From NCBI RefSeq assembly GCF_964213995.1, contig NC_135825.1:11966001-12030000 (forward strand): DNA of 64,000 nucleotides. Direction: 5' to 3'. The DNA comes from Mustelus asterias. Taxonomy: Eukaryota. Shown here piece by piece: positions 1,721-59,409 of this stretch. The notes under the pieces are model-generated. The model was not told the DNA's origin. It worked only from the letters and a program-made list of their open reading frames with translations, and ran no database searches. Within the stretch, counting starts at the first letter, position 1. Every line of letters begins with the position of its first letter. Made by a program: the position numbers and the translations under genes.

Positions 1721-2183
1721 CCAAGCCGATATTCTCTGCTGTTCAGCAGGATGAGCGATGATCACATTGAAAAAAAAAATCTTAATTGACTTCACAGGGC
1801 AGATATTGAGAAAATGTTTCCACTGACTGGAGAATCTAGAACACAGAGTCCATAAGACCATAAGATATAGGAGCAGAATTAGTCCATTCAGCCGATCGAA
1901 TCTGCTCCACCATTCAATCATGGCTGATAAGTTTCTCAACCCCATTCTACCGACTTTTCTCCACAACCTTTGATCCCCTTCCCAATTAAGAATCTATCTA
2001 TCTCTGCCTTAAATCTGTCACAGTCTCAGAGCACAGTGTGGGCCCATTTACTGAGATTGGGCGAGATTACAGAAAGTTCTGTATCTTTGGAATTCTCCAT
2101 CGCAGAGAGCTGTGAATGCTCCACCATTGAGTGCACTCAAGTCAGACATGGATAGATTTTTGGGAGCTTGGGGAACTAGGCTG

Positions 2184-2501
2184 TGTGGTGAACCATCGTT
2201 GGTTACCACTGTGGGGTTATTCTAATGTTGCTGTTGGGCTAGGGTGTTCACACTGTGGGGTTGTTATAATGTTGTTGTTGGGCTAGGGTGTTTACACTGT
2301 GGGATTAATACACCTGTGGTGGATGCTGTTGTGGCACATCCCGGTCGGGCCCCGCCTCCTGGGAGAGGTATAAGACCCTCTGCTCGGGCGGGACCCCTCC
2401 AGTCTGGAATGGTGTACTCGTGTTTAAATAGTTCCATTGTTAGACAATAAAAGCCTTCAATCACTGAAGCCTTGTGTCTCGTGCTCGATTGTCGCGCATC
2501 A
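2184..2501 (+). repeat. Gypsy 5' LTR (318 bp, extra 44-bp tandem unit)
   Basis: Direct repeat of 6584-6857; TATA-like GTATAAG at about 2368; AATAAA at 2446-2451. Confidence 0.95.
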
Positions 2502-2542
2502 ATTTTATTGTCTAACACGAAACTCTCGACAGAAAGGAGAGT

Positions 2543-4723
2543 ATGGAACAAATGCTAAAGCCAGAGCGTCTGACGCTGGATCCACATGCGGTCGGCGCCT
2601 CTAACACCTTCGACCACTGGCTGAAGTGTTTCGAGGACTACCTGGCAGCCTCTGCAGCAGTCACTACGGATAACGACAGACTCCAGGTCCTCCATGCGAG
2701 AGTAAGCGACACTGTCTACCTCGCGATTCGTGCGGCCACCACTTACCCGAGGGCCCTCGAGCTTTTGAAAAAGCGATACACGAGACCTCCCAACGAGATC
2801 CACGCTCGTTACCTCCTCGCTACACGACGTCGGCAGTCGGGCGAAACCATGGAGGACTACGCCAATGAGCTCTTGCAGCTTGCCAGGGGCTGCGACTGCA
2901 AAGCTGTGTCGGCTGAGCAGTACATGTACGACCTCGCCCGAGATGCGTTTGTGGCAGGGGTAGGGTCTTCGTACATCCGGCTCAAGCTGTTGGAGAAGGG
3001 GAATCTCAACCTGACCCAAGCTATGGAGATGGCTGAAATGCTGGAGGCGGCGTCGAAAAGCTTGGCCCTGTATCCGGAGGACCACGTGGAGACAACGTGG
3101 CAGGAGCAATCACAAATCCCTCCTCGCCCCACGGGCTCGCGCTCCCATATCGACCCGACGACGGCGGCAGCCCCAGGCGGCCCGCGGTGCTATTTTTGCG
3201 GAGGAGCCAAGCATCCACGGCAACAGTGTCCTGCTAAAACGGTGGTCTGCAATCAATGCGGTAAAAAGGGGCACTACGCGAAAGTCTGCAGATCGAAGCC
3301 CAAGAACGGCAGTGCAGCCTGTGACCCTCCAGAACGGAGATCATCTCCATCGGCGTCGCAGTACCCACGAGGTCCGTCCACGTGCGAGCCCAGGACGACG
3401 CCATTGTGGCTGGCGGAGGAGGAGGATGACCACCAGGAGTCGCTACGCTTGGCGCCCTCAACCATGTGCGATTCATGGGGGCGGCCATCTTGGTCGACGA
3501 CGACCAGGAGCGACCAGCAGGGGTCCTCAGCATCAACCTCGGCTGCCTGCAGTGACGTCCAAGGGCCAACGGTGGCATCGATCACCCTGGACCAGGCTAA
3601 GCACCACAGGCTTGACTGTTCAATGATGAACATTAAGGTAAATGGTCGTACTGTTTATTGTCTGTTTGACAGTGGGAGCACCGAGAGTTTTATTCACCCT
3701 GACACTGCAAAGAGGTGTGGACTCCGGGTTCTTCCTGCCAAACAGACAATTTCTATGGCATCACGGTCCCGGTCTGTACCGATCCAAGGACGTTGTGTGG
3801 TAACTCTGAAAGTGCAGGGCACAATTTACGAGCGATACAGGCTCCTTGTGTTGCCGCATCTTTGCGCGCCAATTCTCCTCGGACTAAACTTTATGGTCCA
3901 CATGAAGAGTGTGATCCTACAGTACGGTGGGCCACTCCCTTCGCTAACAGTAGGGGATCAGCCGCAGCCTCCAAATTGTCCAAAGCGCCCCGCATGCAAT
4001 CTTTCCACACTAAAGATCACCACACCCTCTTTATTTAAGAATCTGGTACCAGGCTGCAAGCCCATCGCTACTAAAAGTAGGCGTTACAGTGCTGAAGACC
4101 GGATCTTCATCAGATCTGAGGTTCAGCGACTCCTCAAAGAAGGGATCATACAGTCTAGCGTTAGTCCGTGGAGAGCACAGGTCGTGGTGGTTAAGAGCGG
4201 GAACAAACCCCGGATGGTCATCGACTACAGTCAGACCATTAATCGTTATACGCAGCTGGATGCGTATCCTCTACCACGCATATCTGATATGGTCAATCAG
4301 ATTGCGCAGTACCGGGTGTTCTCCACCATAGACCTTAAGTCCGCCTACCACCAACTCCCCATCCGCCCAGAGGACCGACATTACACGGCTTTTGAGGCGG
4401 ATGGTCGTCTGTATCAGTTTCTTAGGGTTCAATTTGGTGTCACCAATGGGGTCTCGGTCTTCCAGCGTGCTATGGACCGAATGGTGGACCAGAACGGGCT
4501 GCGGGCTACCTTCCCGTACCTGGATAATGTCACCATCTGCGGCCATGACCAGCAGGACCATGACACAAATCTCCAGAACTTTTTGCGCACTGCATCTCGC
4601 CTGAATCTGACCTACAACAGGGAGAAGTGTGTATTCCGTACGCGCCGGTTAGCCATCCTGGGATACGTAGTGGAAAACGGGGTCATTGGCCCTGATCCCG
4701 ACCGTATGGTGCCCCCTTACTGA
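2543..4723 (+). CDS. Gypsy Gag-protease-RT (N-terminal part of a polyprotein split by a 1-bp insertion near 4709)
   Basis: Zinc knuckles CYFCGGAKHPRQQC and CNQCGKKGHYAKVC; protease LFDSGS; RT motifs IDLKSAYHQ, FGVTNG, YLDN. Confidence 0.9.
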   Translation: MEQMLKPERLTLDPHAVGASNTFDHWLKCFEDYLAASAAVTTDNDRLQVLHARVSDTVYLAIRAATTYPRALELLKKRYTRPPNEIHARYLLATRRRQSGETMEDYANELLQLARGCDCKAVSAEQYMYDLARDAFVAGVGSSYIRLKLLEKGNLNLTQAMEMAEMLEAASKSLALYPEDHVETTWQEQSQIPPRPTGSRSHIDPTTAAAPGGPRCYFCGGAKHPRQQCPAKTVVCNQCGKKGHYAKVCRSKPKNGSAACDPPERRSSPSASQYPRGPSTCEPRTTPLWLAEEEDDHQESLRLAPSTMCDSWGRPSWSTTTRSDQQGSSASTSAACSDVQGPTVASITLDQAKHHRLDCSMMNIKVNGRTVYCLFDSGSTESFIHPDTAKRCGLRVLPAKQTISMASRSRSVPIQGRCVVTLKVQGTIYERYRLLVLPHLCAPILLGLNFMVHMKSVILQYGGPLPSLTVGDQPQPPNCPKRPACNLSTLKITTPSLFKNLVPGCKPIATKSRRYSAEDRIFIRSEVQRLLKEGIIQSSVSPWRAQVVVVKSGNKPRMVIDYSQTINRYTQLDAYPLPRISDMVNQIAQYRVFSTIDLKSAYHQLPIRPEDRHYTAFEADGRLYQFLRVQFGVTNGVSVFQRAMDRMVDQNGLRATFPYLDNVTICGHDQQDHDTNLQNFLRTASRLNLTYNREKCVFRTRRLAILGYVVENGVIGPDPDRMVPPY

Positions 4724-6518
4724 ACTTCCTTTGCCCGCTAGCGCAAAAGCACTGAGGAGATGCCTCGGCTTCTTCTCCTATTATGCGCAGTGGGTCCCCA
4801 ATTACGCGGACAAAGCCCGTCCGCTTATTAAGTCCACGACTTTTCCACTCACGCCAGAGGCCCATTTGGCCTTCAAGGCATTGAAAAGCGACATTGCGAA
4901 AGCCACGATGCACGCGGTGGATGAATCCATCCCTTTTCAGGTGGAAAGCGATGCATCTGATTTCGCCCTGGCCGCCACACTAAACCAGGCAGGCAGGCCC
5001 GTCGCGTTTTTCTCCCGCACACTTCAAGGTCCCGAAATTCGGCATTCAGCGGTGGAAAAGGAGGCCCAGGCTATTGTGGAGGCCGTCAGACACTGGCGCC
5101 ATTACCTGGCGGGGAAGCGGTTCACCCTGATCATGGACCAGAGGTCCGTGGCGTTTATGTTCAATAATACGCAGAGGGGCAAGATCAAGAATGACAAGAT
5201 CTTGCGGTGGAGAATTGAGCTCTCCACCTATAATTACGATATTATGTATCGTCCAGGGAAACTCAATGAGCCCTCGGATGCCCTCTCGCGCGGAACATGC
5301 GCTACTATGCAGGAGGACCGCTTGAATGCCCTCCATAATGACCTGTGCCATCCTGGGGTCACTCGGCTCTACCACTTCATCAAAGCCCGCAACCTGCCCT
5401 ACTCGGTGGAGGATGTCAGGTCAGTAACAAGAAGGTGTCGGATTTGCGCGGAATGCAAACCGCACTTTTACCGACCTGACCGGGCACAATTGGTCAAGGC
5501 CACTCGCCCCTTCGAGAGGCTGAGTGTGGATTTTAAGGGCCCCCTTCCCTCAACGGACCGGAACGTGCACTTTCTTAACATCATAGATGAGTACTCCTGG
5601 TTCCCGTTTGTTGTCCCCTGTGCGGACACGTCGACTGCCACGGTGATCAAGGCATTCCATGATCTTTTTACCCTGTTCGGGTACCCCTGCTATATACATA
5701 GCGACAGGGGCTCGTCGTTCATGAGTAACGACTTGAGGCAATTCCTGCTCTCATATGGGATTGCCTCTAGTAGAACCACGAGTTACAACCCTAGGGGCAA
5801 CGGACAGGTGGAGAGAGAGAATGCTACAGTCTGGAAGGCTGTCCTATTGGCGCTGAAGTCCAAAGGCCTTCCAGTCTCCCATTGGCAGGAGGTCCTCCCA
5901 AATGCGCTTCACTCCATTCGCTCCCTCCTGTGTACGGCAACCAATGCTACTCCCCATGAGAGGATGTTCTCATTCCCTCGGAAGTCGTCCTCGGGGATAT
6001 CTTTACCAGCCTGGTTGACGTACCCAGGACCCGTCCTTCTGCGGCGACATGTAAGGGCCCGCAAGTCCGACCCCTTGGTCGAGCCGGTCCACCTCCTCCA
6101 CGCCAACCCTCAGTATGCCTATGTGGCATATCCTGACGGGCAAGAGGACACAGTCTCGATCCGAGACCTGGCGCCCGCAGGGGACGTAGCAACTCCTGTC
6201 GCTCCCATACCCCCAGTCACGAATCCCCTATCGCTTATTTCTCCCCCGGACGTGGCGCGGTCAGCACCGGGACCAGTGCATAACAGTTATACTCCCATGT
6301 ACAGCTTGCCTGAGACTCAGAGATCGGCGCCACCACAGAAGGTACCGGGATCCCCTGCACCGCCGCTTCACCAGGGTCAACCGGCCCGTGAGTCATCGAG
6401 GGGACAGCCGGACGCTGTTTTGGAGAGAACGCCACCGCAAGCACCTGCTCCGGTGTCACAACCGGTATTGAGGAGGTCACAACGACGGTGCGGTCCTCCA
6501 GACCGTCTGGACTTGTAA
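4686..6518 (+). CDS. Gypsy RT thumb-RNase H-integrase (C-terminal part)
   Basis: RNase H ESDASDFA...EKEAQA; integrase HHCC (HNDLCHPG...CRIC), DFKG, HSDRGSSF, NGQVER. Confidence 0.9.
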   Translation: MALIPTVWCPLTELPLPASAKALRRCLGFFSYYAQWVPNYADKARPLIKSTTFPLTPEAHLAFKALKSDIAKATMHAVDESIPFQVESDASDFALAATLNQAGRPVAFFSRTLQGPEIRHSAVEKEAQAIVEAVRHWRHYLAGKRFTLIMDQRSVAFMFNNTQRGKIKNDKILRWRIELSTYNYDIMYRPGKLNEPSDALSRGTCATMQEDRLNALHNDLCHPGVTRLYHFIKARNLPYSVEDVRSVTRRCRICAECKPHFYRPDRAQLVKATRPFERLSVDFKGPLPSTDRNVHFLNIIDEYSWFPFVVPCADTSTATVIKAFHDLFTLFGYPCYIHSDRGSSFMSNDLRQFLLSYGIASSRTTSYNPRGNGQVERENATVWKAVLLALKSKGLPVSHWQEVLPNALHSIRSLLCTATNATPHERMFSFPRKSSSGISLPAWLTYPGPVLLRRHVRARKSDPLVEPVHLLHANPQYAYVAYPDGQEDTVSIRDLAPAGDVATPVAPIPPVTNPLSLISPPDVARSAPGPVHNSYTPMYSLPETQRSAPPQKVPGSPAPPLHQGQPARESSRGQPDAVLERTPPQAPAPVSQPVLRRSQRRCGPPDRLDL

Positions 6519-6583
6519 ATTTTTTGTATATATGTAGTCTGTTTTCGCACCCCGCCGGCCTTTGTTTTCAAAGGAGGGGTGAA

Positions 6584-6857
6584 TGTGGTGAACCATCGTT
6601 GGTTACCACTGTGGGGTTATTCTAATGTTGCTGTTGGGCTAGGGTGTTTACACTGTGGGATTAATACACCTGTGGTGGATGCTGTTGTGGCACATCCCGG
6701 TCGGGCCCCGCCTCCTGGGAGAGGTATAAGACCCTCTGCTCGGGCGGGACCCCTCCAGTCTGGAATGGTGTACTCGTGTTTAAATAGTTCCATTGTTAGA
6801 CAATAAAAGCCTTCAATCACTGAAGCCTTGTGTCTCGTGCTCGATTGTCGCGCATCA
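6584..6857 (+). repeat. Gypsy 3' LTR (274 bp)
   Basis: Follows the PPT; matches the 5' LTR by eye except for the 44-bp unit. Confidence 0.95.
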
Positions 6858-7200
6858 GGCTGTCACACTGAAAGATCACTGAAAGATTTCCCTCACGTAG
6901 CTAAGCAAAGAAATGACTTGGGGCGGAACTTTCCCATCCCATCCACATTGTGAATCGTAGCGGGTGGGACAGAGAATTTCTCAGACCATTTAAAAGGTCC
7001 GTTGACCTGAGACAGGAACTTCCAATCTTGGGGTGTACACAGCCAAAACAATCCCGCCCTTGGTCTTAAACAGATCTTCATGATCCTATTGAATGGTGGA
7101 GCAGACTCGATGGGCTGAATGGCCTACTCCTGTTCCTATTTCTTATTGACTTATGGTCTCTATCATTCCAAACCCATGTTAGTTTCACTTCCTCCAGAGT

Positions 7201-7268: not shown

Positions 7269-10200
7269 CTATTAGAATGTGCAGGATACCAGAATCAGAG
7301 ATGTTTGTTGATTGCAGCAAATTAGGTTCTCTTTATATTCTTCAGAAAATGATTGTAATATAACAAAATGATTTGGGGGAAACAGAAACTCACCCTTGTC
7401 GATTCGCCTCCGGTACAAAAGTAGAGAAACAGCGAACACCACAAGAATGGCCCCCAGCACCCCGAGCACAATGTAAATCAGACTGTGACACAGAGAATAG
7501 GAAATGAGCAGTGTTGGACTTTACAATCATAGAAAGTTTACAGCACAGAAAGTGACCACTTGGTCCATCATGTCTGTTGTGTCTAAAAACCGGCCCCCCA
7601 GTGCAGTCCCATTCTCCAGCATTGTGTCCATTGCCCTGCAGATTATCCAGACATCTCTGAAATGAGTTGAGTGTTTCTGCCTCTACCACCCTTTCAGAAA
7701 TCTGCAGCCCTCTGGGTGAAAACACTTTTCCTCATCTCTCCTCCCATCTTTCTACCAATTTCTTTAAATTTATGCTCCCGAGTCACTGACCTCTCTGCTA
7801 AAGTAAACTGGTCCTTCCCGCCCACTCTATCTGGGCTGCTTTTAATGTTGTCCATCTCAATCAATTCTCCCCTAAACCAAGGACAACAACCCCAGCCGAC
7901 CAATGTTTTCTTCTTGGCTGCAATTTTCCAGTCCTGGCAACATCCCTGTAAGTCTCCTCTCTGATACATCCTTTCTGTCATGAGGTGACCAGAACTGCTC
8001 ACAGTGCTCAAGTTATGGCCTAACTCATATTTTATATAGTTCCAGCATAACCTTTCTGACCTGAAATTCCATACCTTGGCTAATGAATGAAAGGATTCCA
8101 TGTGCCTTCTTAACCACCTTATCGACCTGTCCTGCTACCTTCAAGGACCTCTGGGCATTCACTCCTAGGATTTTCACTTCCTCTATATCCCCCAGTATCC
8201 TCCCATTTATTGTCTAACCATTTGCTTTGTTTGACCTGCTCAAATGCATCACCTCACCCTTCTCTGAGTTGAATTCCATTTGCCACTTTTCTGCCCACCT
8301 GACCAGTCCATTGATATCTTCCTGCAGCCGATAGCAATCCTCCTCGCTATCTACTGCATTGGTAATTTTCATTACATTACATCTAAATCATGAATATATG
8401 CCAGAGAAAGCAGGGGACCGAGCACTGAGCATTGGAAACAGCCTTCCAGTCACAAAAACAGCCATCAACAATCATCCTTTGTTTCCTGCCACAATTGATT
8501 CTTGGCCATTTGTTCAAGGAAGTGGGTTTTGAAATTATACATTCATGACCTTTGGATGGTCTAAAGAATTTTACAATCTGGGAAGTATTTTTAGACAATC
8601 ACCACTGTTGTGATATGGGAGATGTGGAAGCCAATTTGCTCACAGCAAAATCTCAGAAACAGCAATGAACTTTGACCAGATCAATATTGGCCATTTCTTC
8701 AGAGATCTCCTTGTCGGCTTTCTCTGTAGATAAGAAGTGACCTGCTGCGTATTTCCAGCAGCTTTTTCATCATTTTGATGTTTAGTTGGTATTTTTTCCT
8801 CATTGCCATTGTAACCTCCGCATTAACACAGCAGCCTGAGCACGCACCCTAATGACATCACATCAAATCAACCCTTTTTAAAACTCGCACCTTCATTATG
8901 AAGCGAACACAACAACATCCCGCCAAGGTTTCTGATCTGAGAGTTATTGAAAAATGATGCCCAGTCTCCCGGATCGTCAGAGACTGGACATATGACCCAA
9001 GATGTGTGTCAGAACCCTGCAGATGACGCAACATGATGACCTCCATGGGAATTGCCTGGGACGTTGGAACTTCCAACGGACAACTCTGCTGTACCCTGAG
9101 TCCCTCTGTGAAAATCTTCAGCTCTGGGTAAGAGTCAGACACTTCAAACAATTCCATGGGGCTTAACTGGATAGTTACCCAGGAAATGTTAGACTGAAAG
9201 AATCAAGTTTAATTCCTGGGTAATCACAGAACTGACCCCCGAATAATCACACTGACCCCCTGGAGTCCCCCCAATCCTCTGATGAACCCCCTGACACACC
9301 AACTATCACCCCACACCCCGACTATCCCATCTGACCTTGTGACGACGCCACAACCTGAGCCAATCCGATTACTCTCACAGACTACTCTTTGCACCCACCA
9401 CTAGCTTACCCAAGGTCCAAATCAGATTAGCCCCCAAACCAGGCTACCCCTGCCAATCTGACCCGATTACCATCCTATTCATCTACCACCTCATCAACCT
9501 CCTACCACACCCAACTGCCACCCTCCACATCTACCACCTCACCTATCTGCAACCCTACCCATCTCACACACCTATGACCTCCCACAACTGTCTTCTCACC
9601 CACCTACCACCATTGCCTCCTACTACCAACACATCGATACACCTGTCTCCCGATCCATCGTTCACCCGACCCACCTGTGGTCCTACTGAGTTGCGATGGA
9701 ATTCTCCGAGGGACGCTGCGCTCCACAGTTCTGGAGAATCTGGACTTGGAAGATCAGGCAAGAAATGTGGAGCTGAGTCGAGGGTGGAAAGCTTCAAGCG
9801 GAGTGGCAATCCAACAATGATTGCTGCTCTGTGACTGGCCCAGGACAATAAATTACATCCATTCTCACGCCAAAGTTGTTAAAGAGGATTTAATCACTCA
9901 CACAGAAGCCATGTCATTTAAACACTAACAATAAAAACAGCGTACCTTTCAGCAGGTTTGGAGTTTGGAATTGACGAATGCATTGACGATACCGTTAAAA
10001 CTTCACAAGAATTTTCAGGTCCGACTGAAAGAAGGAAACAACATTCAGATCAGCCTCATTTTCATTGTCGTGAACCGAGAGAGTCACATTGTCAAATGGC
10101 ACTTCGACCTGAGGGAGAACCACGTTGAGGGAGCACCTCTTCTTGGGATGTGGTTATTGCTGTTTAGGTCAGCAATTATTGCCCATCCCTAATTGCCCTG

Positions 10201-13200
10201 TGAAGATGTTCATGAGATGCCTCTTGAACCGCTGCAGTCCACGTGGTGTAGGTACACCCACAGTGCAGTGAGGGAGGGAGCACCCATCGTGTCTATGCCA
10301 GTCAAACACAATTGTCTTTCCAGCACGTGGCCCATAGCTTTGTGTGCCTTGGCATCACGAGTGCACATCAAAATATTTCTTAAATGTTATGAGGGTCTCT
10401 GAGACACCAGGAAAATTTGCCTATTCCTCTTGGAAGAGGGCCATGTAATCATTTACATTTAGCTCAAAGGACGTGTGGATCAGCAGTTCAACCAGACAAT
10501 AGCACCGTCAACAGCAGAGCGCAATCTCCGTGCTGTACAGTGATATCAACCCCTTTCTCGGAAGGAGAATTTGAACTCACAACCCATTGGTTTCAGAAAT
10601 CAGGCTGCGACCAACTGAGCCCCTTCTGACACTGACATATTTGAATATTAAACATTCAAACTGGTTAAAGTCCTCATTAATTCAGGACTATCGTTAGTGT
10701 TTATGTTAACACTGAGTAATTCAGTGTTTAGAACATGGAATTCTGAGATTTTGAGCAGCATTTTGTGATGATAGAATTTTTCGGCAAAGAAGGAAATTTG
10801 GTCCATTGCCCTCCATCGCTATGAAAGAATTTGCCATTTAGAATCAGAGAATCCATGCAGCGCACAAGGAGGCCATTTGGCCCATCGAGTCTACAACGAC
10901 ACTCCCATTGTCGTGTCTTTTCCCCAAATCCTCCTAAATGTCTGCTCCTTTTTAGCTTCCCTTGTGAAAGCTGTTATTTATTCTGTTTCTCACACAATCC
11001 ATATCTTAATAATCATTTGCATCAATAAAATTCTCCCAATTTCTCCCGCTGTCCATGTTGTGATGATCTTAACTGTATTCTCTCCAGTATTCACTCACTT
11101 ACTCCTGGAAATAATTCGTCTCAATTTATCTTATCAAAGCCTCTAATAATTTTGAATAGATTTAGCAGATCATTTCCTTCTATTCTAATGATTCTTTGCC
11201 GGTGTTAGCTGTTGGTAGCACTCTTGTGTCTGCAGCCACAAGGTTCTGTGTTCTCGCCCTACTCTTGGACTCAAAAATCAAAGCTGACACTCCTGTGCAG
11301 TACTGAGGAAGTGCTGCACTGTTGGAGGTGCTGCCTTTCGGATGGCTGTTGAACTGAGTCCCCAATCTGCCTGCTCTATGGGCAGCATGGTGGCACAGTG
11401 GTTAGCACTGCTGCCTCACAGCGCCAGAGACCCGGGTTCAAATCTGGCCTCGGGTGACTGGCTGTGTGGAGTTTGCACATTCTCCCCGTGTCTGCGTGGG
11501 TTTCCTCCGGGCACTCTGGTTTCCTCCCACAGTCCAAAGATGTGCGGATTAGGTGGATTGGCCAAGCTAAATTGCCCCTCAGTGTCAGGGGGAACTAGCT
11601 GGGGTAAATGCATGGGATTATGGGGATAAGGCCTGGGTGGGATTGACGTTGGCGGAGACTCGATGCGTCAAATGGTCTCCTTCTGCACTGTAAGATTCTA
11701 TGGATTCTATGAATCTATGGATGTATAAGATCGATGGCACTCGATCTCCTGAAGAAAAAACAGAAGCGTTATCCCAAAATCACCCGGTGATCCTTATCCC
11801 TCAATCAAAAACATGTTATCAGTTCATTATTTTGATCTTGCAGTGTGTAAATTGGCTGCTGTGTTTGGTTCCTGCCTGACAACAGTGACAGGGCTTCAAA
11901 AAGCATTTCATTGGTTGGAAAGTGCTTCGAGAAGTCAGGTGACTGTGAAAGTAAATGTAAGACATTCTTTCATTTTGTAAGTGAGACCTCTTAAGATGCT
12001 ATCATTTCACATCAACTCTTCAACTCTCGGGCCTTACCATTCATCCTAAAGCAAGAGTCATCAGCTAAAGATTGTTATTCACAATTTGATCTCCAAGAAA
12101 TGGGAACAGGAATGGTTAATGGAGACCTTGTCAGTCAAGTTCTATTTAATATTAATGGGATTACTGCAAAATTTACACATGTTTGGGGAATATTTTACGA
12201 TCCTGATATTTTCGATCAATATTTTAATCAGTAAGTTTGTTCCGAGTGGTTGAGGGACAAAGCAGAGTGAATTTTTGTCAGTTGCAGTCATTCAGAGAGA
12301 CATTAGGAAGCGAACCAGCAACCAGTATAGACAAACATCAATAAATATTTCACTGACCACATCGTATGTTTACACTATCACTTACCAACGTTGTTGATCT
12401 GTGTCACATAACTGCAATTCTCCCCTAATCCGTTGATCACTGAAATGTTAAACATTTCACTGGATTTTTCTCCCTGGTTATTTGAGGCTGTGCAGTAATA
12501 TTGATGATGTTGCTGTGTGAAGGATTGACAATGTAGATCCAGTTTATTGGTGTCAGAGATCTTTGAATCTTCGGACGGGGTCTTTTCATACCATGTGTAC
12601 TGAATGGGAAGTGATCCCTGGACAGACTCACAGGAGGCGGACACTGAGCCCCCAGAACATGAGGCATTTGGTGGTGATAGAAATTTAAGTTCAGGAACAG
12701 ACACAGGTTCTGTGGGAAAAAGACAATCATTCATGGATTTTCACAGTAACCTCATTGCAGTGTGAATGGAAGCCTACTTGTGACACTAATTTAAAAAAGC
12801 TTTAACTTTAAACTTTAAAATTTTAAACATAAGAATTACCAAAAAATTAAATAATTTCATATTACCAATATTTCAACACCTCACCCAGGGTGTGAGGAGG
12901 AAGGGGAAGTGTTAGAGAGAGAGAGAGATGGCAGTGGGAACTTGCCGAATGCAGGTAGTATCTCTTGATTGCTGACATGGACAGCAGATATTCATGATCG
13001 CAGATTAGTTCGTAACAAGCATTGGAGTGTGACCTGAGATAGTATCGAGTGATCCACCCCTGCTGCCAGTTGGAATAGGGAATTTGGCGCTCAGCCAAAT
13101 CTCCATTCACAGCAGCGGGACTGGATAATTCCAGCTGCGGACGAGTTCGGTGAAATTTGGCCATTGTTTGTATTTGTATTTAACATTTAACAGTAAGTAA

Positions 13201-16200
13201 CATTTAACATTTAAGTGTGAATACTGTTTCAATTTGAGGGTGGGGTTTTATGGCCTCGAATAAGCGAGACTGTAAAATCCCGGCCAAGGTCAACAGACAT
13301 TTCCGTTGTCTGCCCCACACCCGCTCCGATACCATGGCGGGCGAGGCAGTAAAATTCTGACGTAAGTACCATCCAAAGGACATGAGCTGGGAGATAGAAG
13401 CTATCCACTGGCAGCAACTGGATTAGTTAATTGGGGAAACTGGCTTGAACTGGTCGTTTTGTACTGAGTCCCTTTGTTCTTGAACATGTAAATTCAGACA
13501 TTCTCAGGGCAACCAGCACTGGAGTCTGACTCCGACTGAGTCTGGAGGTTTAATGAGCTGAAGGAATTTACTACGCGAGAAGAAGTGAGCTGTTGGTGAA
13601 TATCTGGTGAGTATCTAGGAAGTGGTCAAGGTCTATTTTCCATCCATCGGGAGCATGGGTGTGGTTCCTGCCAACTTGTTAACCAGGCGAGCGGGTTCCA
13701 AGGTGCAATAAATCTGACCCCATCTCTCTGGATCATTACTCTGGGCCTCTGAATTACAATTCCTCCAACATAATCATTGTGCTAACTACCCTCTAGCTCC
13801 AGACCCTACACTGCTGCGGAGCCTCGGGATATCGGAGCTGTCAATGTCTCCCCCCAGATAAAGCACCGATCACGCATTTGAGTCGAGAGTAATAACGATA
13901 ATCACTGAGAACAATGTACCGTCAGATATTTGTAGCTTTACAGGAAATATTGAAAGGAAGCCATGCTTATGAACACCACAGCTGTACCATCCTGCATCTC
14001 CTGAATGAAGATCCTCCACAGTAACAACAAATGATCTTTGTGTCTTGTGATCTGTGATCGACATTCTCCCTCGCCGTCCATCTGGATCGTCTGATTTTAC
14101 CAAAACAGAGCACTGACGACTCCAAGATTTCACATGGGACTGGGACAATTTGTCATAGTGACAATCTATAGTGATCGATCTTCCCAAAACTCCTGTTACT
14201 TTATTTTTTGCCCACAAGGCACTTGGAGCTGAAAAGACAACAGGTCAAAAGTTGAACTGAAAATAATTGCTCAATACAAACAGATATATTTCAATAGGAA
14301 TTACCACTGTGTTCAGATAAATCTTTCCAATACATCTTCTAATGCAATTGGATACTTCCTTGTTTGAGATCATTGGGCACAGTGAATATGTGCTTCCTGC
14401 GGATTGATAATTAGACAACCATATTGAGATTGTACACCAAGCCCTTTATAAAACAAGACCCTGAGTGGTTCCATTAATCTTTTAGTCCTGGTTGGGACCT
14501 GTTGGGTTCACTACAGGTGTGTGGTAATTCATTATTTTCATTTTGTACAATTGAAGCACGGTTCCTTCACAGCCAGCTCCTGGAGTTATTGTATTCTCAA
14601 ACAGCAATTGTCAGACAGCAGATTGTCTGCTCATGATCACGTTGCTCTTCGAGGGAGCTTCGTGCTCACAAATTGGTGCTGAGCTTCCTACATCACAACA
14701 ATGGCCCTGAATCAGTCCCAGCATTGACCAGAACGGACTTTAAAACTATCCTGAAGTTGTGAGAAGTGAAAAATAAATGCAATTCTATTTTTATTAAAAT
14801 TGCTTTGAACGACCAATCGAACTAAACCTGTGAGCATTCAACCAGACATTCATTTAAAAATTAGTTGAATCTTTTGAAACTTAAAGTGATATTTACCAAT
14901 GTTGCTGATTTGTGTTAAGTAACTGCAATCATTCTCTGAAATGTGGATCACTGACACTGTAACCATTTCACTGGATTTTTCCCCCTGGTTATTTGAGGCT
15001 GTGCAGTAATATTGATGATGTTGCTGTCTGAATGATTGACAATGTAGATCCAGTTTATTGGTGCCAGAGATCTTTGAATCTTCAGACGGGGTCTTTTCAT
15101 ACCATGTGTACTGAATGGGAAGTGATCCCTGGACAGACTCACAGGAGACGGACACTGAGCCCCCAGAACATGAGGCATTTGGTGGTGATAAAAATCTAAG
15201 TTCAGGAACAGACATGGGTTCTGTCGGAAAAAGACAATCATGAATGGATTTTCAAAGTAACTTTATTGCAGTGTTAATGTAAGCCTAATTGTGACACAAA
15301 TTTTAAAAAGCTTTAACTTTAAACTTTGAAACTTTAAACTTGAGAATGACCAAAAAATTCAATAGTTTCATATTACCAATATTTCTACACCTCATCCAGG
15401 GTGTGAGGAGGAAGGGAAATTGTTAGAGAGAGAGAGAGAGATGGCAGTGGGAGCTTGGCCGAATGCAGGTAGTATCTGTTGCTCGCTGTCACGGACAGCA
15501 GATATTCATGATAGCAGATTAGATAGCAACAAGCATTGGAGTGTGACCTGAGATAGACTGTGGACGTTTACTGAGATAATGGAGACTGAAAATATCTATC
15601 TAAAAATCTAATCTTGACCTGAAATCTCTGATATCGAGTGATCCGCCCCTGCTGCCAGTTGGAATAGGGAAATTGGCGCTCAGCAAAACTCAGTTCACAG
15701 CAGCGGGACTGGATAATTCCAGCTGTGGACAGGTTCGGTGAAATTCGGCCATTATTTGTATTTGTATTTAACATTTAACAGTAAGTACCATTTAACATTT
15801 AAGTGTTTAAAGTCGTTGGCGGGGATTTATGGCCTCGAATGAGCGAGACTGGATAATCTTGCCCAATGTCAACAGACATTTCCGTTGTCTGCCCCACACC
15901 CGCTCCGATACCATGGCGGGGCGAGGCAGTAAAATTCTGACGTCTCATCCAAAGGGCATGAGCTGGGAGATAGAAGCTATCCACTGGCAGCAACTGGAAT
16001 AGTTAATTGGGGAAACTGGCTTGAACTGGTCTTTTTGTACTGAGTCACTTTGTTTTTGAACATATAAATTCAGACATTCTAAATGCAACTAGCACTGGAG
16101 TCTGCCTTCAACCGAGTGTGGAGGTTTAATGAGCTGAATGAATTTACTGCAGGGGAAGAAGTGAGCTGTTGGTGAGTATCTGGTGAGTATCCGGGAAGTG

Positions 16201-19200
16201 GTCAAGGTCTATTGTCCAGGCATCGGGAGCATGGGTGGGGTCCTTGCCAACTTGTTAATCAGGAGAGCCGGTTCCTAGGTGCAATAAATCTGACCCCATC
16301 TCTCTGGATCATTACTCTGGGCCTCTGAATTACAATTCCTCCAACATAATCATTGTTCTAACTGCCCTCTCGCTGCCAGACTCTGCACTGCTGCGGAGCC
16401 TCGGGATATCGGAGCTGTCAATGTCTCCTCCCAGATAAAGCACCGATCAGACATTTCAGTCGCGAGGAAGAAAGACAATCAATGAGAACAATGTACCGTC
16501 AGATATTTGGAGCTTTACAGGAAATATTGAAAGGAAGCCGTGCTTATGAATACCACAGCTGTACCATCCTGCATCTCCTGAACGAAGATCCTCAATCGTA
16601 ACAACAAATGATCTTTGTGTCTTGTTATCTGTGATCGACATTCTCCCTCGCCGTCCATCTGGATCGTCTGATTTTACCAAAACAGAGCACTGACGACTCC
16701 AATATTTCACATGGGACTGGGGCAATTTGTCATAGTGACAATCTATAGTGATCGATCTTCCCAAAACTCCTGTTACTTTATTTTTTGTCCACAAGTCACT
16801 TGGAGCTGAAAAGACAACAGGTCAAAAATTGAACTGAAAATAATTGCTTCATACAAACAGATATATTTCAATAGGAATTACCACTGTGTTCAGAGAAATC
16901 TCTCCAATACATCTTCTAATGCAATTGGATACTTTCTTGTTTGAGATCGTTGGGGTCATTCAATATGTGCTTCCTGCGGATTGATAATTAGACAACCATA
17001 TTGAGATTGTATACACAGCCCTTTATAAAGCAAGACCCTGAGTGGTTCCATTAATCTTTTAGTCCTGGTTGGGACCTGTTGTGTTCACCACAGGTGTGTG
17101 GTTATTCTTTATTTTCATTTTGTACAATAGAAGCACGGTTCCTTCACAGCCAGCTCCTGGAGTTGTTATATTCTCAAACAGCAATTGTCAGACTGCAGAT
17201 TGTATGCTCATCATCACATTGCTCTTTGAGGGAGCTTATTGCTCACAAATTGGTGCTGAGCTTCCTACATCACAACAATGGCTCTGAATCAGTTCCAGCA
17301 TTGACCAGAACGGACTTTAAAACTGTCCTGAAGTTGTGAAAAGTGAAAAACGAATGCAATTCTATTTTTATTAAAATTGCTTTGAACGACCAATAGAACT
17401 AAACCTGTGATCAATTCAGACAGACATTAATTTAGAAATTAGTTGAATCTTTTGAAACTTAAGGTGATATTTACCAATGTTGCTGATTTGAGTCACATAA
17501 CTGCAATCATTCTCTGAAATGTGGATCACTGACCCTGTAACCATTTCACTGGATTTTTCTCCCTGTTTATTTGAGGCTGTGCAGTAATATTGATGATGTT
17601 GCTGTCTGAATGATTGACAATGGAGATCCAGTTTATTGGTGCCAGAGATCTTTGAATCTTCAGACGGGGTCTTTTCATACCATGTGTACTGAATGGGAAG
17701 TGATCCCTGGACAGACTCACAGGAGATGGACACTGAGCCCCCAGAACATGAGGCATTTGGCGGTGATAAAAATTTAAGTTCAGGAACAGACACGGGTTCT
17801 GTGGGAAAAAGACAATCATGAACGGATTTTCACAGTAACTTCATTGCAGTGTTAATGTAAGCGTACTTGTGACACAAATTTTAAAAAGCTTTAACTTTAA
17901 ACTTTGAAACTTTAAACTTGAGAATGACCAAAAAATTAAATAGTTTCATATTACCAATATTTCAACACCTCATCCAGTGTGTGAGGAGGAAGGGAAAGTG
18001 TTAGAGAGAGAGAGAGATGGCAGTGGGAGCTTGGCCGAATGCAGGTAGTATCTATTGATTGCTGTCGCGGACAGCAGATATTCATGATAGCAGATTAGAT
18101 AGCAACAAGCATTGGAGTGTGACCTGAGATAGACTGTGGATGTTTGCTGAGATAACGGAGACTGAAAATATCTATCTAAAAATCTAATCTTGACCTGAAA
18201 TCTCTGATATCGAGTGATCCGCCCCTGCTGCCAGTTGGAATAGGGAATTTGGCGCTCAGCCAAATCTCCATTCACAGCAGCGGGACTGGATAATTCCAGC
18301 TGTGGACAGGTTCGGTGAAATTCGGCCATTATTTGGATTTGTATTTTTCATTTAACAGTAAGTACCATTTAACATTTAAGTGTGAGTACTGTTTAAAGTC
18401 GAGGGCGGAGATTTATGGTCTCGAATGAGCGAGACTGGAAAATCTTGCCCAATGTCAACAGACATTTCCGTTGTCTGCCCCACACCCGCTCCGATACCAT
18501 GCTGGGCGAGGCAGTAAAATTCTGACGTATCATCCAAAGGGCATGAGCTGGGAGATAGAAGCTATCCACTGGCAGCAACTGGAATAGTTAATTGGGGAAA
18601 CTGGCTTGTACTGGCCTTTTTGTACTGAGTCCCTTTGTTTTTGTACATATAAATTCAGTCATTCTCAGTGCAACCAGCACTGGAGTCTGCCTTCAACCGA
18701 GTGTGGAGGTTTAATGAGCTGAAGGATTTTACTGCAGGGGAAGGAGTGAGCTGTTGGTGAATATCTGGTGAATATCCAGGGAGTGGTCAAGATCTATTGT
18801 CCAACCATCGGGAGCATGGGTGTGGTTCCTGCCAACTTGTTAACCAGGAGAGCGCGGTCCAAGGTGCAATAAATCTGACCCCATCTCTCTGGATCATTAC
18901 TCTGGGCCTCTGAATTACAATTCCTCCAGCATAATCATTGTGCGAACTGCCCTCTCGCTGCCAGACTCTGCACTGCTGTGAAGCCTCGGGATATCGGAGC
19001 TGTCAATGCCTCCTCCCAGATAAAGCACCATCAGACATTTCAGTCAAGAGTAATAAAAATAATCACTGAGAACAATGTACCGTCAGATATTTGTAGCTTT
19101 ACAGGAAACATTGAAAGGAAGCCGGGCTTATCAATACCACAGCTGTACCATCCTGCATCTCCTGAGTGAAGATCCTCCATAGTAACAACAAATAATCCTT

Positions 19201-22200
19201 GTGTCTTGTGATCTGTGATCGACATTCTCCCTCGCCGTCCATCTGGATCGTCTGATTTTACCAAAACAGAGCACTGAACACTCCAAGATTTCACATGTGA
19301 CTGGGACAATTTGTCATAGTGACAATCTATAGTGATCGATCTTCCCAAAACTCCTGTTACATTATTTTTTGCCCACAATGCACTTGCAGCTGAAAAGACA
19401 ACAGGTCAAAAATTGAACTGAAAATAATTGCTTAATACAAACAGATATATTTCAATAGGAATTACCGCTGTGTGCAGAGAAATCTCTCCAATACATCTTC
19501 TAATGCAATTGGATACTTTCTTGTTGAGATCGTTGGGCACATCAAATATGTGCTCCCTGCAGATTGATAATTAGACAACCATATTGAGATTGTATCCCAA
19601 GCCCTTTATGAAGCAAGACCTTGAGAGGGTCCATTAATCTTTTAGTCCAGGTTGGGACCTGTTGTATTTACCACAGGCGTGTGGTTATTGTATATTTTCA
19701 TTTAGTACAATAAAAGCACGGTTCCTTCACATCCGGCTCCTGGAGTTATTATTTTCTCAAACAGCAATTGTCAACCAGCAGATTGTCTGCTCATGATCAC
19801 ATTGCTCTTTGAGGGGTCTTATTGCTCACCAATTGGTGCTGAGCTTCCTACATCACAACAATGGCTCTGAATCAGTTCCAACATTGACAAGAGTGATAAG
19901 GGAAATATGAAGCCATCAGGCAGGAGATTAGAGGCGTAAATTGGAAGGAGGCACTCTCGAGGAAAAGTACCGAAGTAGGGTGGCAGATTTTCAAGGAATG
20001 TTTGTCTGGAGTTCTGCATGACAACGTTCCGATGAGACAGGGAGGTGTTTGTAGGTTACGGGAACCGTGGTTCACGAAAGCTGCACTGAACCTAGTCAAA
20101 AAGAAAAGGAAAGCGTACAAAAGGTTCAGAGAGCTAGGCAATGATAGCGATCTAGATGAGGATACGGCTTGTAGGAAGGGACTTAAGAAAGAAATTAGGA
20201 GAGCCAGAAGGGGTCACGAGAAGACCTTGGCAGATCAGATGAAGGAGAACCCTAATGCGTTCTATAAATATGTGAAGAATAAAAGGATGAGATGTGTAGG
20301 AATAGGACCTATAAAATGTGAAGGTGAGAAAGTCTGTACAGAACCGGAAGAAATATCAGAGGTGCTTAATGAATCTTTTACCTCGGTATTCACGGTAGAA
20401 AAAGACCTGGGTGGTTGTACGACAGGATTGAGGCGGACTGAAAAGATTGAGTGCATTAATAAAGAGGATGTATTGGAAATTTTGAATAGCATCAAGATAG
20501 ATAAGTCGCCGGGACCGGATGGGATGTACCCCAGGTTACTGTGGGAGGTGAAGGAAGAGATTGCAGAGCCTCTGGCGATGATCTTTGCGTCGTCGATAGA
20601 GACGGGAGAGGTTCTGGAGGATTGGAGGATTGCAGATGTGGTTCCTATATTCAAGAAAGGGAATAGGGATAGCCCAGGAAATTACCGGCCGGTGAGTCTA
20701 ACCTCAGTGGTTGGTAAGTTGATGGAAAAGATCCTGAGGGACAGGATTTATGAACATTTAGAGAAGTTTAGTATGCTCAAAAGGAGTCAGCACAGAACAA
20801 AGAACAAAGAACAAAGAACAGTACAGCACAGGAAACAGGCCCTTCGGCCCTCCAAGCCTGTGCCGCTCCTTGGCCCAACTAGACCAATCGTTTGTATCCC
20901 TCCATTCCCAGGCTGCTCATGTGACTATCCAGGTAAGTCTTAAACGATGTCAACGTGCCTGCCTCCACCACCCTACTTGGCAGCGCATTCCAGGCCCCCA
21001 CCACCCTCTGTGTAAAAAACATCCCTCTGATATCTGAGTTATACTTCGCCCCTCTCACCTTGAGCCCGTGACCCCTCGCGATCGTCACCTCCGACCTGGG
21101 AAAAAACTTCCCACTGTTCACCCTATCTATCCCCTTCATAATCTTGTACACCTCTATTAGATCTCCCCTCATTCTCTGTCTTTCCAGGGAGAACAACCCC
21201 AATTTACCCAATCTGTCCTCATAGCTAAGACCCTCCATACCAGGCAACATCCTGGTAAACCTCTGCACTCTCTCTAACGCCTCCACGTCCTTCTGGTAGT
21301 GCGGCGACCAGAACTGGACGCAGTACTCCAAATGTGGCCTAACCAGCGTTCTATACAGCTGCATCATCAGACTCCAGCTTTTATACTCTATACCCCGTCC
21401 TATAAAGGCAAGCATACCATATGCCTTCTTCACCACCGTCTCCACCTGTGTTGCTACCTTCAAGGATTTGTGGACTTGCACACCTAGGGTCCCTCTGTGT
21501 TTCTATAGTCCTGATGACTCTGCCATTTATTGTATAACTCCTCCCTACATTATTTCTTCCAAAATGCATCACTTCGCACTTATCCGGATTAAACTCCATC
21601 TGCCACCTCTCCGCCCAATTTTCCAGCCTATCTATATCCTGCTGTATTGCCCGACAATGCTCTTCGCTATCCGCAAGTCCAGCCATCTTCGTGTCATTCG
21701 CAAACTTGCTGATTACACCAGTTACACCTTCTTCCAAATCATTTATATATATCACAAATAGCAGAGGCCCCAGTACAGAGCCCTGCGGAACACCACTGGT
21801 CACAGACCTCCAGCCAAAGGCAAATCGTGCCTTACGAGCCTGGTGGAGTTCTTTGAAAATGTGACTAAACACATTGATGAAGGAAAAGCGGTAGATGTGG
21901 TTTACATGGACTTCAGCAACGCGTTCGATAAGGTCCCCCATGCAAGACTTCTCGAGAAAGTGAGAGGGCATGGGATCCAAGATGCTGTTGCCTTGTGGAT
22001 CCAGAACTGACTTGCCTGCAGAAGGCAGAGAGTGGTTGTAGATGGGTCTTTTTCTGAATGGAGGTCGGTCACCAGTGGAGTGCCCCAGGGATCTGTTCTG
22101 GGACCCTTGCTGTTTGTCATTTTCATAAATGACCTGGATGAGGAAGTGGAGGGATGGGTTGGTAAGTTTGCCGATGACACGAAGGTTGGTGGTGTTGTGG

Positions 22201-25200
22201 ATAGGTTGGAGGGATGTCAGAAGCTGCAACGTGACATAGATAGGATGCAAGACTGGGCGGAGAAGTGGGAGATGGACTTCAACCTGGATAAATGTGTAGT
22301 GGTCCATTTTGGCAGGTCAAATGGGATGAAGGAGTATAATATAAAGGGTAAGACTCTTAGCAGTGTAGAGGATCAGAAGGACCTTGGAGTCTGGGTCCAT
22401 AGGACTCTTAAATCGGCCTCGCAGGTAGAGGAGGTGGTTAAGAAGGCGTATGGTGTGCTGGCCTTCATCAAGTGAGGGATTGAGTTTAGGAGTCAGGAGA
22501 TAATGATGCAGTTTTATAAGACCCTCGTCAGACCCCACTTGGGGTACTGTGCTCAGTTCTGATCACCTCATTACTGGAGGGATGTGGAAATGATTGAAAG
22601 GGTGCAGAAAAGATTTACAAGGATGTTGCCTGGATTGGTTGGCATGCCTTAGGAGGATAGGTTGAGGGAGCTCGGTCTTTTCTCCTTGGAGAGACGAAGG
22701 ATGAGAGGTGACCTGATAGAGGTGTACAAGATGTTGAGAGGTATAGATCAGGTGGATTCTCGGAGGCTCTTTCCCCGGGCTGAAATGGCTGCTACGAGAG
22801 GACACAGGTTTACGGTGCTGGGGAGTAGGTACAGAGATGTCAGGGGTAAGTTTTTCACTCAGAGGGTGGTGGGTGAGTGGAATCGACTGCCGTCAGTGGT
22901 GGTGGAGGCAATCTCGATAGGGTCTTTTAAGAGACTTCTGGATGAGTACATGGGACTTAATAGGATTGAGGGTTATAAGTAAGCCTATATGTAAGCTTAG
23001 GTAGGTAGGGACATGACCGGTGCAACTTGTGGGCCGAAGGGCCTGTTTGTGCTGTATTTTTACTTTGTTCTATGTTCTATGAACTGACTTTAAAACTGTC
23101 CTGAAGTTGTGAAAAGTGAAAAATAAATGCAATTCCATTTTTATTGAAATTTCTTTGAACGACCAATAGAACTAAACGCGTGAGCAATGCAAACAGACAT
23201 TAATTTAAAAATTAATTGAATTTTCTGAAGCTTAAAGTGATAGTTACCAATGTTGCTGATTTGTGTCACATAACTGCAATCATTCTCTGAAATGTGGATC
23301 ACTGACACTGGAACCATTTCACTGGATTTTTCTCCCTGGTTATTTGAGGCTGTGCAGTAATATTGATGATGTTGCTGTTTGAAGGATTGACAATGTAGAT
23401 CCAGTTTATTGGTGTCAGAGATCTTTGAATCTTCAGACGGGGTCTTTTCATACCATGTGTACTGAATGGGAAGTGATCCCTGGACAGACTCACAGGAGAC
23501 GGACACGGAGCCCCCAGAACATGAGGCATTTGGTGGTGATAGAAATTTAAGTTCAGGAACTGACACAGGTTCTGTGGGAAAAGACAATCATCAACGGATT
23601 TTCACAGAAACTTCATTGCAGTGTTAATGTCAGCCTACTTGTGACAACAATTAAATAAATGTTTAACATTAAACTTCAAAACTTTGAACTTTCGAATGAC
23701 CAAAAAATTAAATAGTTTCATCATACCAATATTTCTACACCTCATCCAGGGTGTGAGGAGGAAGGGAAAGTGTTGGAGAGAGAGAGAGATGGCAGAGGGA
23801 TCTTGGCCGAATGCAGGTAGTATCTATTGATTGCTGTCACGGACAGTTAGTAACAAGCATTGAAGTGTCACCTGAGATGGACTGTGGATGTTTACTGAGA
23901 TAACGGAGACGTAAATATCTTTCTAAAAATCTAATCTTGACCTGAATTCTCCGATATCGAGTGATCCGCCCCTGCTGCCAGTTGGAAGAGGGAATTTGGC
24001 GCTCGGCCAAATCTCCATTCACAGCAGCGGGACTGGATAATTCCAGCTGCGGAGTTTGGTGAATTCCAGCCATTGTTTGTATTTGTATTTATCATATAAC
24101 AATAAATACCATGTAACATTTAAGTGCGAGTACTGTTTAAAGTCTATGGCGGGGTTTTATGGCCTCGAGTGAGCGAGACTGGAAAATCCTGCCAAAGGTC
24201 AACAGACATTTCCGTTGTCTGCCCCACACCCGCTCGGATACCGGGTAAATATGTGGGGGTAGGGCCTGGGTGGTCGGTGCAGATTCGATGGCCGAATGGC
24301 CTCCTTCTGCACTGTAGGGTTTCTATAATAAGAAAAAAAAATGGCGGGCGAGGCAGTAAAATTCTGACGAAAGTATCAACCAAAGGGCATGAGCTGGGAG
24401 ATAGAAGCTATCCACTGGCAGCAACTGGAATAGATAATTGGGGAAACTGGCTTGAACTGGCCTTTTTGTACTGAGTCACTTTGTTTTTGAACACATAAAT
24501 TCAGACATTCTCAGTGCAACCAGCACTGGAGTCTGCCTTCAACCGAGTGTGGAGGTTTAATGATCTGAAGGAATTTTCTACAGGAGAATAAGTGAGCTGT
24601 TGGTGAGTATCTGGTGAGTATCCGGGAAGTGGTCAAGGTCTATTGTCCAGGCATCAGGAGCAAGGGTGGGGTTTTCTCCAACTTGTTAACCAGGAGTGCA
24701 GTGTCCAAGGTGCAATAAATCTGACCCCATCTCTCTGGATCATTACTCTGGGCCTCTGAATTACAATTCCTCCAACATGATCATTGTTCTAACTGCCCTC
24801 TAGCTGCCAGACTCTGCACTGCTGCGGAGCCTCAGGATATCGGAGCTGTCAATGTCTCCTCCCAGATAAAGCACCGATCAGACATTTCAGTCGAGAGTAA
24901 TAAAGATAATCACGGAGAACAATGTACCGTCAGATATTTGTAGCTTTACAGGAAATATGGAAAGGAGGCCGGGCTTATCAATTCCACAGCTGTACCATCC
25001 TGCATCTCCCGAACGAAGATCCTCCATCGTAACAACAAATAATCCTTGTGTCTTGTTATCTGTGATCGACATTCTCCCTCGCCGTCCATCTGGATCGTCT
25101 GATTTTACCAAAACAGAGCACTGAACACTCCAAGATTTCACATGTGACTGGGACAATTTGTCAGAGTGACAATCTATAGTGATCGATCTTCCCAAAACTC

Positions 25201-56160: not shown

Positions 56161-56557
56161 AAAAAGTAACTTTCCCCTCCCATAGAGTAACTTTCCTTTC
56201 CCAAAGAGTACCTTTCCCCTCCTAAAGAGTAACTTTCCCATCCCAAAGAGTAAATTTCCCCTCCTAAAGAGTAACTTTCCTTTCCCAAAGAGTAACGTTC
56301 CCCTCCTAAAGAGTAACTTTCCTTTCCCAAAGAGTAACTTTCCCCTCCCAAAGAGTAACTTTCCCCTCCTAAAGAGTAATTTTCCTTTCCCAAAGAGTAA
56401 TGTTCCCCTCCTAAAGAGTAACTTTCTTTTCCCAAAGAGTAACTTTCCCCTCCTAAAGAGTAACTTTGCTCCACAAAGAGTAACTTTCCTCTCCCAAAGA
56501 GTAACTTTCCTCTCCCAAAGAGTATCTTTCCCCTCCCAAAGAGTAACTTCCCTCTCC
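56161..56557. repeat. 21-bp minisatellite, 19 units (AAAGAGTAACTTTCCCCTCCC variants)
   Basis: Counted directly; only about 2 units at the mirror site 42981-43025. Confidence 0.95.
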
Positions 56558-56894
56558 AGAAGATGTACCCTGGCTGTCCATAAGAACCCACCAAGTCCAA
56601 AGATGTGCGGGTTAGGTTGATTGCCCAAGCTAAATTGCCCCTGAGTGTCCCAGGATGCGTAGATTAAAGGGTTTAGCGGGTAAATATGTAGGGATATGGG
56701 GATAGGGCCTGGGTGGGATTGTTGTCGGCGCAGACTCAGTGGGCCGAATGGCCTCTTTCTGTACTGTAGGGGTTCTATGGTTCTATGGTTCTAAGTTCAG
56801 ACCTTCTCTTAACTGTTCTAATCTGCACATTCCGGATTCCACACTCCTGTTCATCCAAAATCCCACTTCAGTCGAGGCAGATGTTGAATTTAAT

Positions 56895-59402: not shown

Positions 59403-59409
59403 GTTTCAG

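Follow-up and report, generated by a model that had tools for sequence, protein, structure and literature searches.

The Ty3/Gypsy retrotransposon described here, from the genome of Mustelus asterias, carries a PBS that is complementary to a segment of its own LTR (the LTR arm), and comparison of sequences indicates that this arm-PBS pairing is a real feature of the entire clade to which the element belongs. Self-priming of some kind, in which the element's own RNA takes the place of a tRNA, is very probable, and the best reading of the data is a variant of self-primed reverse transcription that uses an internal arm, the mechanism of which we infer. All positions refer to the window, the 64,000-nucleotide stretch of contig NC_135825.1 (positions 11,966,001 to 12,030,000, forward strand) that was analysed. 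The element within it is a young Ty3/Gypsy insertion with a 5-bp TSD, TG..CA LTRs and a single gag-pol frame, and comprises the following features:

2179..2183, forward strand: left TSD, GGCTG, with its right copy at 6858-6862; a 5-bp TSD is found in 69 of the 80 scorable copies in a sample of 98
2184..2501, forward strand: 5' LTR of 318 bp, TG...CA, whose U3 holds 2.3 copies of a 44-bp unit
2369..2374, forward strand: TATA-like box, from sequence, present in 143 of 154 related copies
2399..2404, forward strand: Inr-like motif with predicted +1 at A2401, lying 31-34 nt 3' of the TATA in 141 of 154 copies
2431..2437, forward strand: upstream R strand of a second predicted helix, whose partner is the gag start at 2543-2549 (from the fold and from cross-family pairing)
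2438..2452, forward strand: LTR arm, candidate 3' end of the self-primer, with AATAAA at 2446-2451 (from complementarity and covariation)
2455..2469, forward strand: small hairpin predicted by folding directly 3' of the arm, within the 50-nt loop
2503..2517, forward strand: PBS, complement of the arm, without TGG (from sequence)
2543..6518, forward strand: gag-PR-RT-RH-IN frame with RT motif YLDN and no chromodomain; frameshift near 4705-4720 in the window copy
6570..6583, forward strand: polypurine tract, from sequence, ending in AA before the TG of the 3' LTR; the AA/TG junction is the same in most relatives
6584..6857, forward strand: 3' LTR of 274 bp, with a copy of the arm at 6794-6808, where AATAAA would end the transcript

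The two LTRs of the window element are identical apart from one 44-bp tandem unit which, together with the TSD GGCTG and the purine tract ending in AA, marks the insertion as very young. The 44-bp U3 unit (2207-2307) varies in number among close copies, whose LTRs measure 274, 318 or 362 bp. The gag-PR-RT-RH-IN region forms one frame from M2543 that is broken in the window copy by the frameshift, and open frames of more than 1,300 aa are found in many of its sister copies. Among solved structures, the RT matches Ty3 RT best (E 8e-30), with caulimoviral and retroviral RT ranking lower, and no Chromo domain was detected by Pfam at E 0.1 (the window's two ORFs, P0004, P0029). TG..CA LTRs, a TSD within the 4-6-bp range, a polypurine tract, the PR-RT-RH-IN domain order and a Ty3-like RT together identify a member of Ty3/Gypsy (Metaviridae). 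The two-zinc-knuckle Gag is one that we take to resemble that of Mag. The RT catalytic motif (4525-4536) reads YLDN in the window element and in most related families and YLDD in basal ones; YLDN is not diagnostic, as 17 of the 45 homologs with a scored motif have YLDD.

The LTR arm at 2438-2452 (TGTTAGACAATAAAA) is the exact reverse complement of 2503-2517, with no extension of the match either outward or inward, and the single base A2502 separates this complement from the end of the 5' LTR. Elements of the tRNA-primed class have a PBS that starts with TGG and matches the 3' end of a tRNA; at the PBS of the window element TGG is absent. When the bases of the LTR were shuffled, a 15-nt complement to the 24 nt that follow it arose once in 20,000 shuffles. 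Thus, a perfect 15-nt complement one base after the 5' LTR, without TGG and with AATAAA in its partner, as the initial annotation had described, is confirmed in the sequence. A search of Rfam at the PBS site and LTR returned no known RNA family or ribozyme, and only one match at chance level. The PBS starts with TTT in all scored copies of this genome. A separate 13-nt match to the PBS at 8206-8218 lies outside the element in an apparent LINE fragment and is likely due to chance.

Copies within the genome revealed that the two arms change together. One pattern spanning the arm and the PBS had 1,833 matches in the genome, against 15 for a control pattern. In a sample derived from this pattern (98 of the first 100 listed matches, the two others not being elements), all 15 pairs were formed in 79 copies; shuffling the PBS among copies reduced this to a mean of 15.2 and a maximum of 29. 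Arm positions 2442-2445 occurred in at least eight variants among these 98 copies, each with its own matching PBS. A wider set of 168 loci was also assembled; an anchor that holds the first six pairs constant was matched by 154 of them and missed by 14, and one further locus was dropped as a second element. In the resulting 153 copies, pairs 8-13 counted from the junction were Watson-Crick in 897 of 918 cells, with 6 G-U and 15 mismatched, compared with 220-374 Watson-Crick cells in a slid control; these cells come from related copies and do not represent independent events. Among 22 family representatives, each the best-paired copy of its group, every one of the six variable arm pairs varies on both sides, a single cell being G-U, and their covariation score was reached by none of 500 shuffles. 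Across the families of this genome the AATAAAA:TTTTATT block is invariant. Compensatory covariation, which had been proposed as a check on the initial annotation, is therefore found both within and across families.

The pairing extends well beyond the host genome. The named sources of homologous proteins are sharks, rays, Trichinella and Armadillidium, and 73 loci were collected from metagenome and genome contigs, which we suppose to be of animal origin; 35 of them possess a gag start plus upstream DNA, and removal of seven near-copies and one short locus left 27. Loss of complementarity in diverged relatives, which would have spoken against the initial annotation, did not occur: 21 of the 27 loci, representing about 18 families, form 10-19 perfect pairs beginning 1-3 nt after a CA, each exceeding the maximum of 25 shuffles. 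Of the six unpaired loci, four seem decayed on visual inspection, and in the other two no LTR can be recognised. Save for a few that are decayed or shifted, the PBS of the 21 paired loci begins with TTT, and almost every arm has TAA(A) as its last bases and A/GCCT next to them. A stem of at least 4 bp starting at the first base past the arm was counted, with no null run, in 11 of the 18 families. An RT tree unites the non-host loci with the families of this genome, to the exclusion of two distant outgroups, and its deepest branches, which carry YLDD and not YLDN, also show arm-PBS pairing. No relative of the element was found in viral contigs, and the ESM Atlas returned generic Gag clusters only. 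Full elements of the clade also lie within contigs of bacterial MAGs (L127-L133), where host contamination is likely.

The motifs of the 5' LTR suggest that the arm does not form the 5' end of the transcript. The initial annotation placed a TATA box at about 2368 and an Inr at about 2400; both motifs are present, and the spacing between them is kept in the related copies as listed above; in 133 of 141 copies the distance from the Inr to the end of the arm is 49-54 nt. A start at A2401, as predicted from these motifs, would put the arm about 37 nt inside the transcript. This internal position is backed for the families of this genome only, since no TATA at a fixed distance was found across the 18 non-host families. 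The predicted fold adds a second helix, between 2431-2437 and the gag start at 2543-2549, in which 98.5% of cells are paired across families and one pair appears as C-G in 14 families, U-G in 4 and U-A in 4. Covariation here rests on that one pair, as most of the conservation reflects the fixed gag start; nevertheless, a helix of this kind requires RNA upstream of the arm. It tolerates inherited G-U in many copies, and this contrast between the helices is as expected if the arm helix is templated and the second helix merely selected.

As to the exact route of self-priming, we lean slightly towards one in which the internal 5' copy of the arm is cut out as the primer and the PBS is then rewritten. 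The 5' arm copy would fold onto the PBS, stacked between the small hairpin on its 3' side and the helix of upstream R with the gag AUG. The element's RNase H, as in Tf1, would then cut at the 3' edge of the arm, after A2451 or A2452, leaving a capped primer of roughly 50 nt. Strong-stop DNA would span only U5 and the short stretch of R past the cut before jumping to the 3' R, and plus-strand synthesis would write the primer end back into the PBS. A changed arm would be written into the PBS in a later cycle in this way, which can account for arm and PBS staying strictly Watson-Crick as families diverge. Pairing starts at the position required of a primer end: the AT that follows CA on the right is the counterpart of the AA that precedes TG on the left, and integrase trims these two extra bases. 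There is precedent for both halves of the scheme in Tf1, where the PBS is bound by the first 11 nt of the transcript, which RNase H frees as the self-primer by cutting after base 11 (available text of PMC7175516), and where the PBS is copied from the primer (available text of PMC11042837).

Chimeric copies bear on this route. Of an estimated 900 copies genome-wide, 7 join the arm of one subfamily to the PBS of the other. In L363 the PBS of the other subfamily sits on the copy's own, otherwise different backbone, and L383 has all five U5 markers of the other type together with its own arm, PBS and gag; both fit strong-stop DNA that ends at the 3' edge of the arm and, hence, a primer from the 5' copy. 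L317, with a foreign arm and the old PBS, and L399, with a foreign arm and matching PBS on the same type of backbone, look like two steps of PBS rewriting. L364, in which the PBS alone is foreign, needs either priming in trans or a short gene conversion. Neither L365 and L366, in which only the arm of the 5' LTR, through two transversions, belongs to the type of the other subfamily and the 3' arm and PBS are unchanged, nor the mosaics L240 and L367 fit the self-priming route simply, and short gene conversion could explain several of the chimeric copies. Of the 24 copies that combine the U5 of one type with the PBS of the other, most are an ancestral grade and not recombinants, which weakens the marker painting. 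A four-gamete incompatibility matrix for the strand-jump point was uninformative, being swamped by homoplasy in the arm.

Self-priming might alternatively draw on the 3' R copy of the arm, or on the arm of a second packaged RNA: a cut after AAUAAA(A) would remove the poly(A) tail, and strong-stop DNA would run to +1, with the 37 nt upstream of the arm used for the strand jump. This would explain a start upstream of the arm and would provide a longer R overlap than the 12-25 nt remaining after a 5' cut; moreover, L364 fits priming in trans and L317 fits as well as it does the 5'-copy route. Yet arm and U5 should then move together, whereas L363 and L383 separate them, and the one copy genome-wide that joins this PBS type to the other type's leader is L364, whose arm has not moved. 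The nearby 5' arm, across a loop of 50 nt, should also win the folding race on modelling grounds. We therefore regard priming by the 3' copy as rather unlikely. The internal arm invoked by the self-priming mode of the initial annotation is well supported by covariation and by the retention of pairing, while the choice that it offered between internal cleavage and the 3' R copy is only weakly resolved.

How far the PBS is rewritten bears on whether the arm is internal at all. Pair 14 carries an inherited mismatch in 9 of the 98 copies, pair 13 is open in one family and pair 11 is open in 3 of 4 copies of another; these inherited mismatches limit rewriting to 10-13 pairs at most. A short Tf1-like primer would equally explain this limit, which resembles run-off from such a primer. 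Packaged RNA would then start at or near 2438-2442 with the arm as its 5' end, as in ordinary Tf1-type self-priming, and the TATA-Inr pair would drive another transcript or be misread. Alternative transcription starts are known in LTR elements, and the non-host families, as noted, lack a fixed TATA. Against this reading stand the conserved TATA-Inr spacing in this genome and the second helix, which uses bases upstream of the arm and shows the C-G/U-G/U-A series; with AATAAA inside the arm, R would also be only some 30 nt long. Furthermore, in one 7-copy subfamily the PBS is extended to 19 pairs, which requires template sequence upstream of the arm, or two lucky changes. A start at the arm is, on balance, improbable. 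Copying beyond the arm as a common event is rejected, as the window's group yielded 3 single matches and none with a 4-nt extension.

The presence of AATAAA within the arm raises a different possibility, that the hairpin serves mainly to hide the poly(A) signal of the 5' LTR or to control gag translation, with priming left to something else. The signal lies some 45 nt past the predicted start. In the predicted fold of the window copy its pairing probability is 0.91-1.0 in the 5' context, whereas in the 3' context five of its six bases fall to 0.05-0.11. Occlusion is thus predicted in the 5' context only; the invariance of AATAAAA:TTTTATT in this genome's families is in keeping with such a role, as is the occurrence of AATAAA or ATTAAA within the arm in 13 of the 21 paired non-host relatives. 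Conversely, neither hexamer is present in the other 8 of these 21 arms, and in three relatives (L074, L103 and L130) AATAAA lies free in the loop, so that occlusion is not the whole story. Pairing always starts 1-3 nt past the CA of the LTR, where a primer must end; the arm helix is nearly free of G-U, against the inherited G-U of the second helix; and no other primer site is left. Concealment of the signal, which the initial annotation had put forward, is hence predicted for the window copy and plausible as a side benefit of the arm helix on modelling grounds, and is very improbable as its main function.

Priming by a host RNA (a tRNA fragment, an snRNA end or an oligo-A RNA), with the LTR match incidental or kept by DNA-level conversion between the arms, is barely credible: short conversions may explain L364-L366, but the PBS occurs in more than 20 variants, each matched by the LTR of its own element, there is neither a TGG for a CCA end nor an Rfam family at the site, and direct copying of the 5' arm into the PBS, hinted at by L194 and L201, is infrequent, because the compensated hexamer change of L201 occurs once genome-wide, by chance or as a rare event, against 13 copies changed in the arm only.

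The remainder of the window contains further repeats and viral remnants. A broken, env-bearing endogenous retrovirus occupies 32468-39317 (forward strand), with a zinc knuckle, RT/RH, integrase and a TLV_coat/HR1-HR2 env fragment, and a second env-like ORF fragment with the same Pfam matches lies at 62007-62957 on the reverse strand. Tandem 2.5-kb repeats and two ORFs with Ig V-set domains, at 41281 and 59367, are spread over 12300-29500, 41281-41913 and 59367-59912; the ORF at 41281 overlaps a diverged copy of the 2.5-kb repeat, and no exact consensus RSS was found. A 21-bp minisatellite of about 19 copies spans 56116-56618, and more RT-bearing ORF fragments, probably of LINEs, lie at 19900-22316, 43412-44581 and 57808-59325.

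Among known systems, the closest comparison is with Tf1. Self-priming is established for Tf1 and inferred for Tf1/sushi chromoviruses with a 'pretzel' fold (available text of PMC7175516, PMC4600332 and PMC10085805). As far as those texts describe them, Tf1, Tf2, Tj1 and the Tf1/sushi group share with the window element the Ty3/Gypsy domain order, the lack of a tRNA site, an LTR-adjacent PBS complementary to their own LTR and extra helices around the primer duplex. The window element differs from Tf1/sushi in having no chromodomain. Moreover, the Tf1 primer is, in the same partial account, the first 11 nt of the transcript, whereas the arm of the window element is 13-15 nt long, is predicted to lie about 37 nt inside the transcript and carries a poly(A) signal; and the Tf1 pretzel has two extra duplexes with LTR sequence downstream of the primer, where the window element has a predicted helix of upstream R with the gag AUG and predicted loop hairpins. 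Lacking both chromodomain and pretzel, the element is not filed under Tf1/sushi.

Self-priming has also been predicted for the Tcn1 clade and for the TAR/Houba/Osr-1 Copia elements of plants (available text of PMC6317226). There, as here, it is read from complementarity between PBS and LTR, and the strategy spans more than one lineage; these are, however, chromovirus or Copia elements, from plants and predicted only, and the part of that text available describes no link to a poly(A) signal. The element resembles Troyka in being among the compact single-ORF LTR elements of aquatic animals, but identity with Troyka is rejected, as Troyka has CG..CG ends and a 3-bp TSD in the available text of PMC12440569 and the window element has TG..CA ends and the 5-bp TSD noted above. 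GalEa, with its conserved hairpin site, and bivalve TRIMs likewise have no tRNA site and an inverted repeat proposed to aid priming; both of their arms are internal, whereas the window element has one arm in the LTR (PMC6934838, in its available part). Our literature search found no description of arm-PBS pairing in a chromodomain-less animal clade; the primary Tf1 papers, Repbase and GyDB entries and supplements were outside its scope and may already note the pairing. Such pairing is not described in the available portions of PMC11673190, PMC3601003, PMC6934838, PMC13524379, PMC6238403 and PMC8556966, and the search returned no PBS data for MolGy1, Cigr-1 or YLDN elements, the main texts of PMC6238403 and PMC8556966, in the portions available, being without them. 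What this genome adds is the conserved TATA-Inr spacing, the AUG helix and the chimeric copies. With regard to the poly(A) signal, the 5' poly(A) hairpins of retroviruses such as HIV-1 also bury AAUAAA in the 5' LTR context, by a hairpin within R-U5 while a tRNA still primes; in the window element, by contrast, the partner of AATAAA is the PBS itself.

It is tempting to speculate on a broader model, which we hold only tentatively and with rather less than even confidence. An old, animal-wide clade of chromodomain-less Gypsy elements would use a second form of self-priming, in which the primer is cut inside R exactly at the poly(A) signal. One helix would both set the primer end and silence 5' polyadenylation and, with the helix of upstream R and the AUG, would switch the RNA from translation to copying; the PBS would be rewritten in every cycle, possibly with a primer from a co-packaged RNA.

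To our knowledge, Tf1 is the only element in which self-priming has been demonstrated; the mechanism is regarded as characteristic of the Tf1/sushi chromoviruses and has been predicted in a few plant lineages. The present clade is abundant (the 1,833 matches above represent one group) and young, and its short leader RNA suits in vitro work; annotation tools based on the PBS would miss it. Were RNase H to cut with about 37 nt of RNA still upstream, the known activity of the enzyme would be broadened. If the reading of self-priming is true, the element would escape control by tRNA supply and by 3' tRNA fragments, and the finding would bear on which came first, hairpin or tRNA priming, a question raised in the available text of PMC3601003. 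If true, an animal clade of this size that lacks a chromodomain and primes from an internal arm would represent a separate solution to self-priming.
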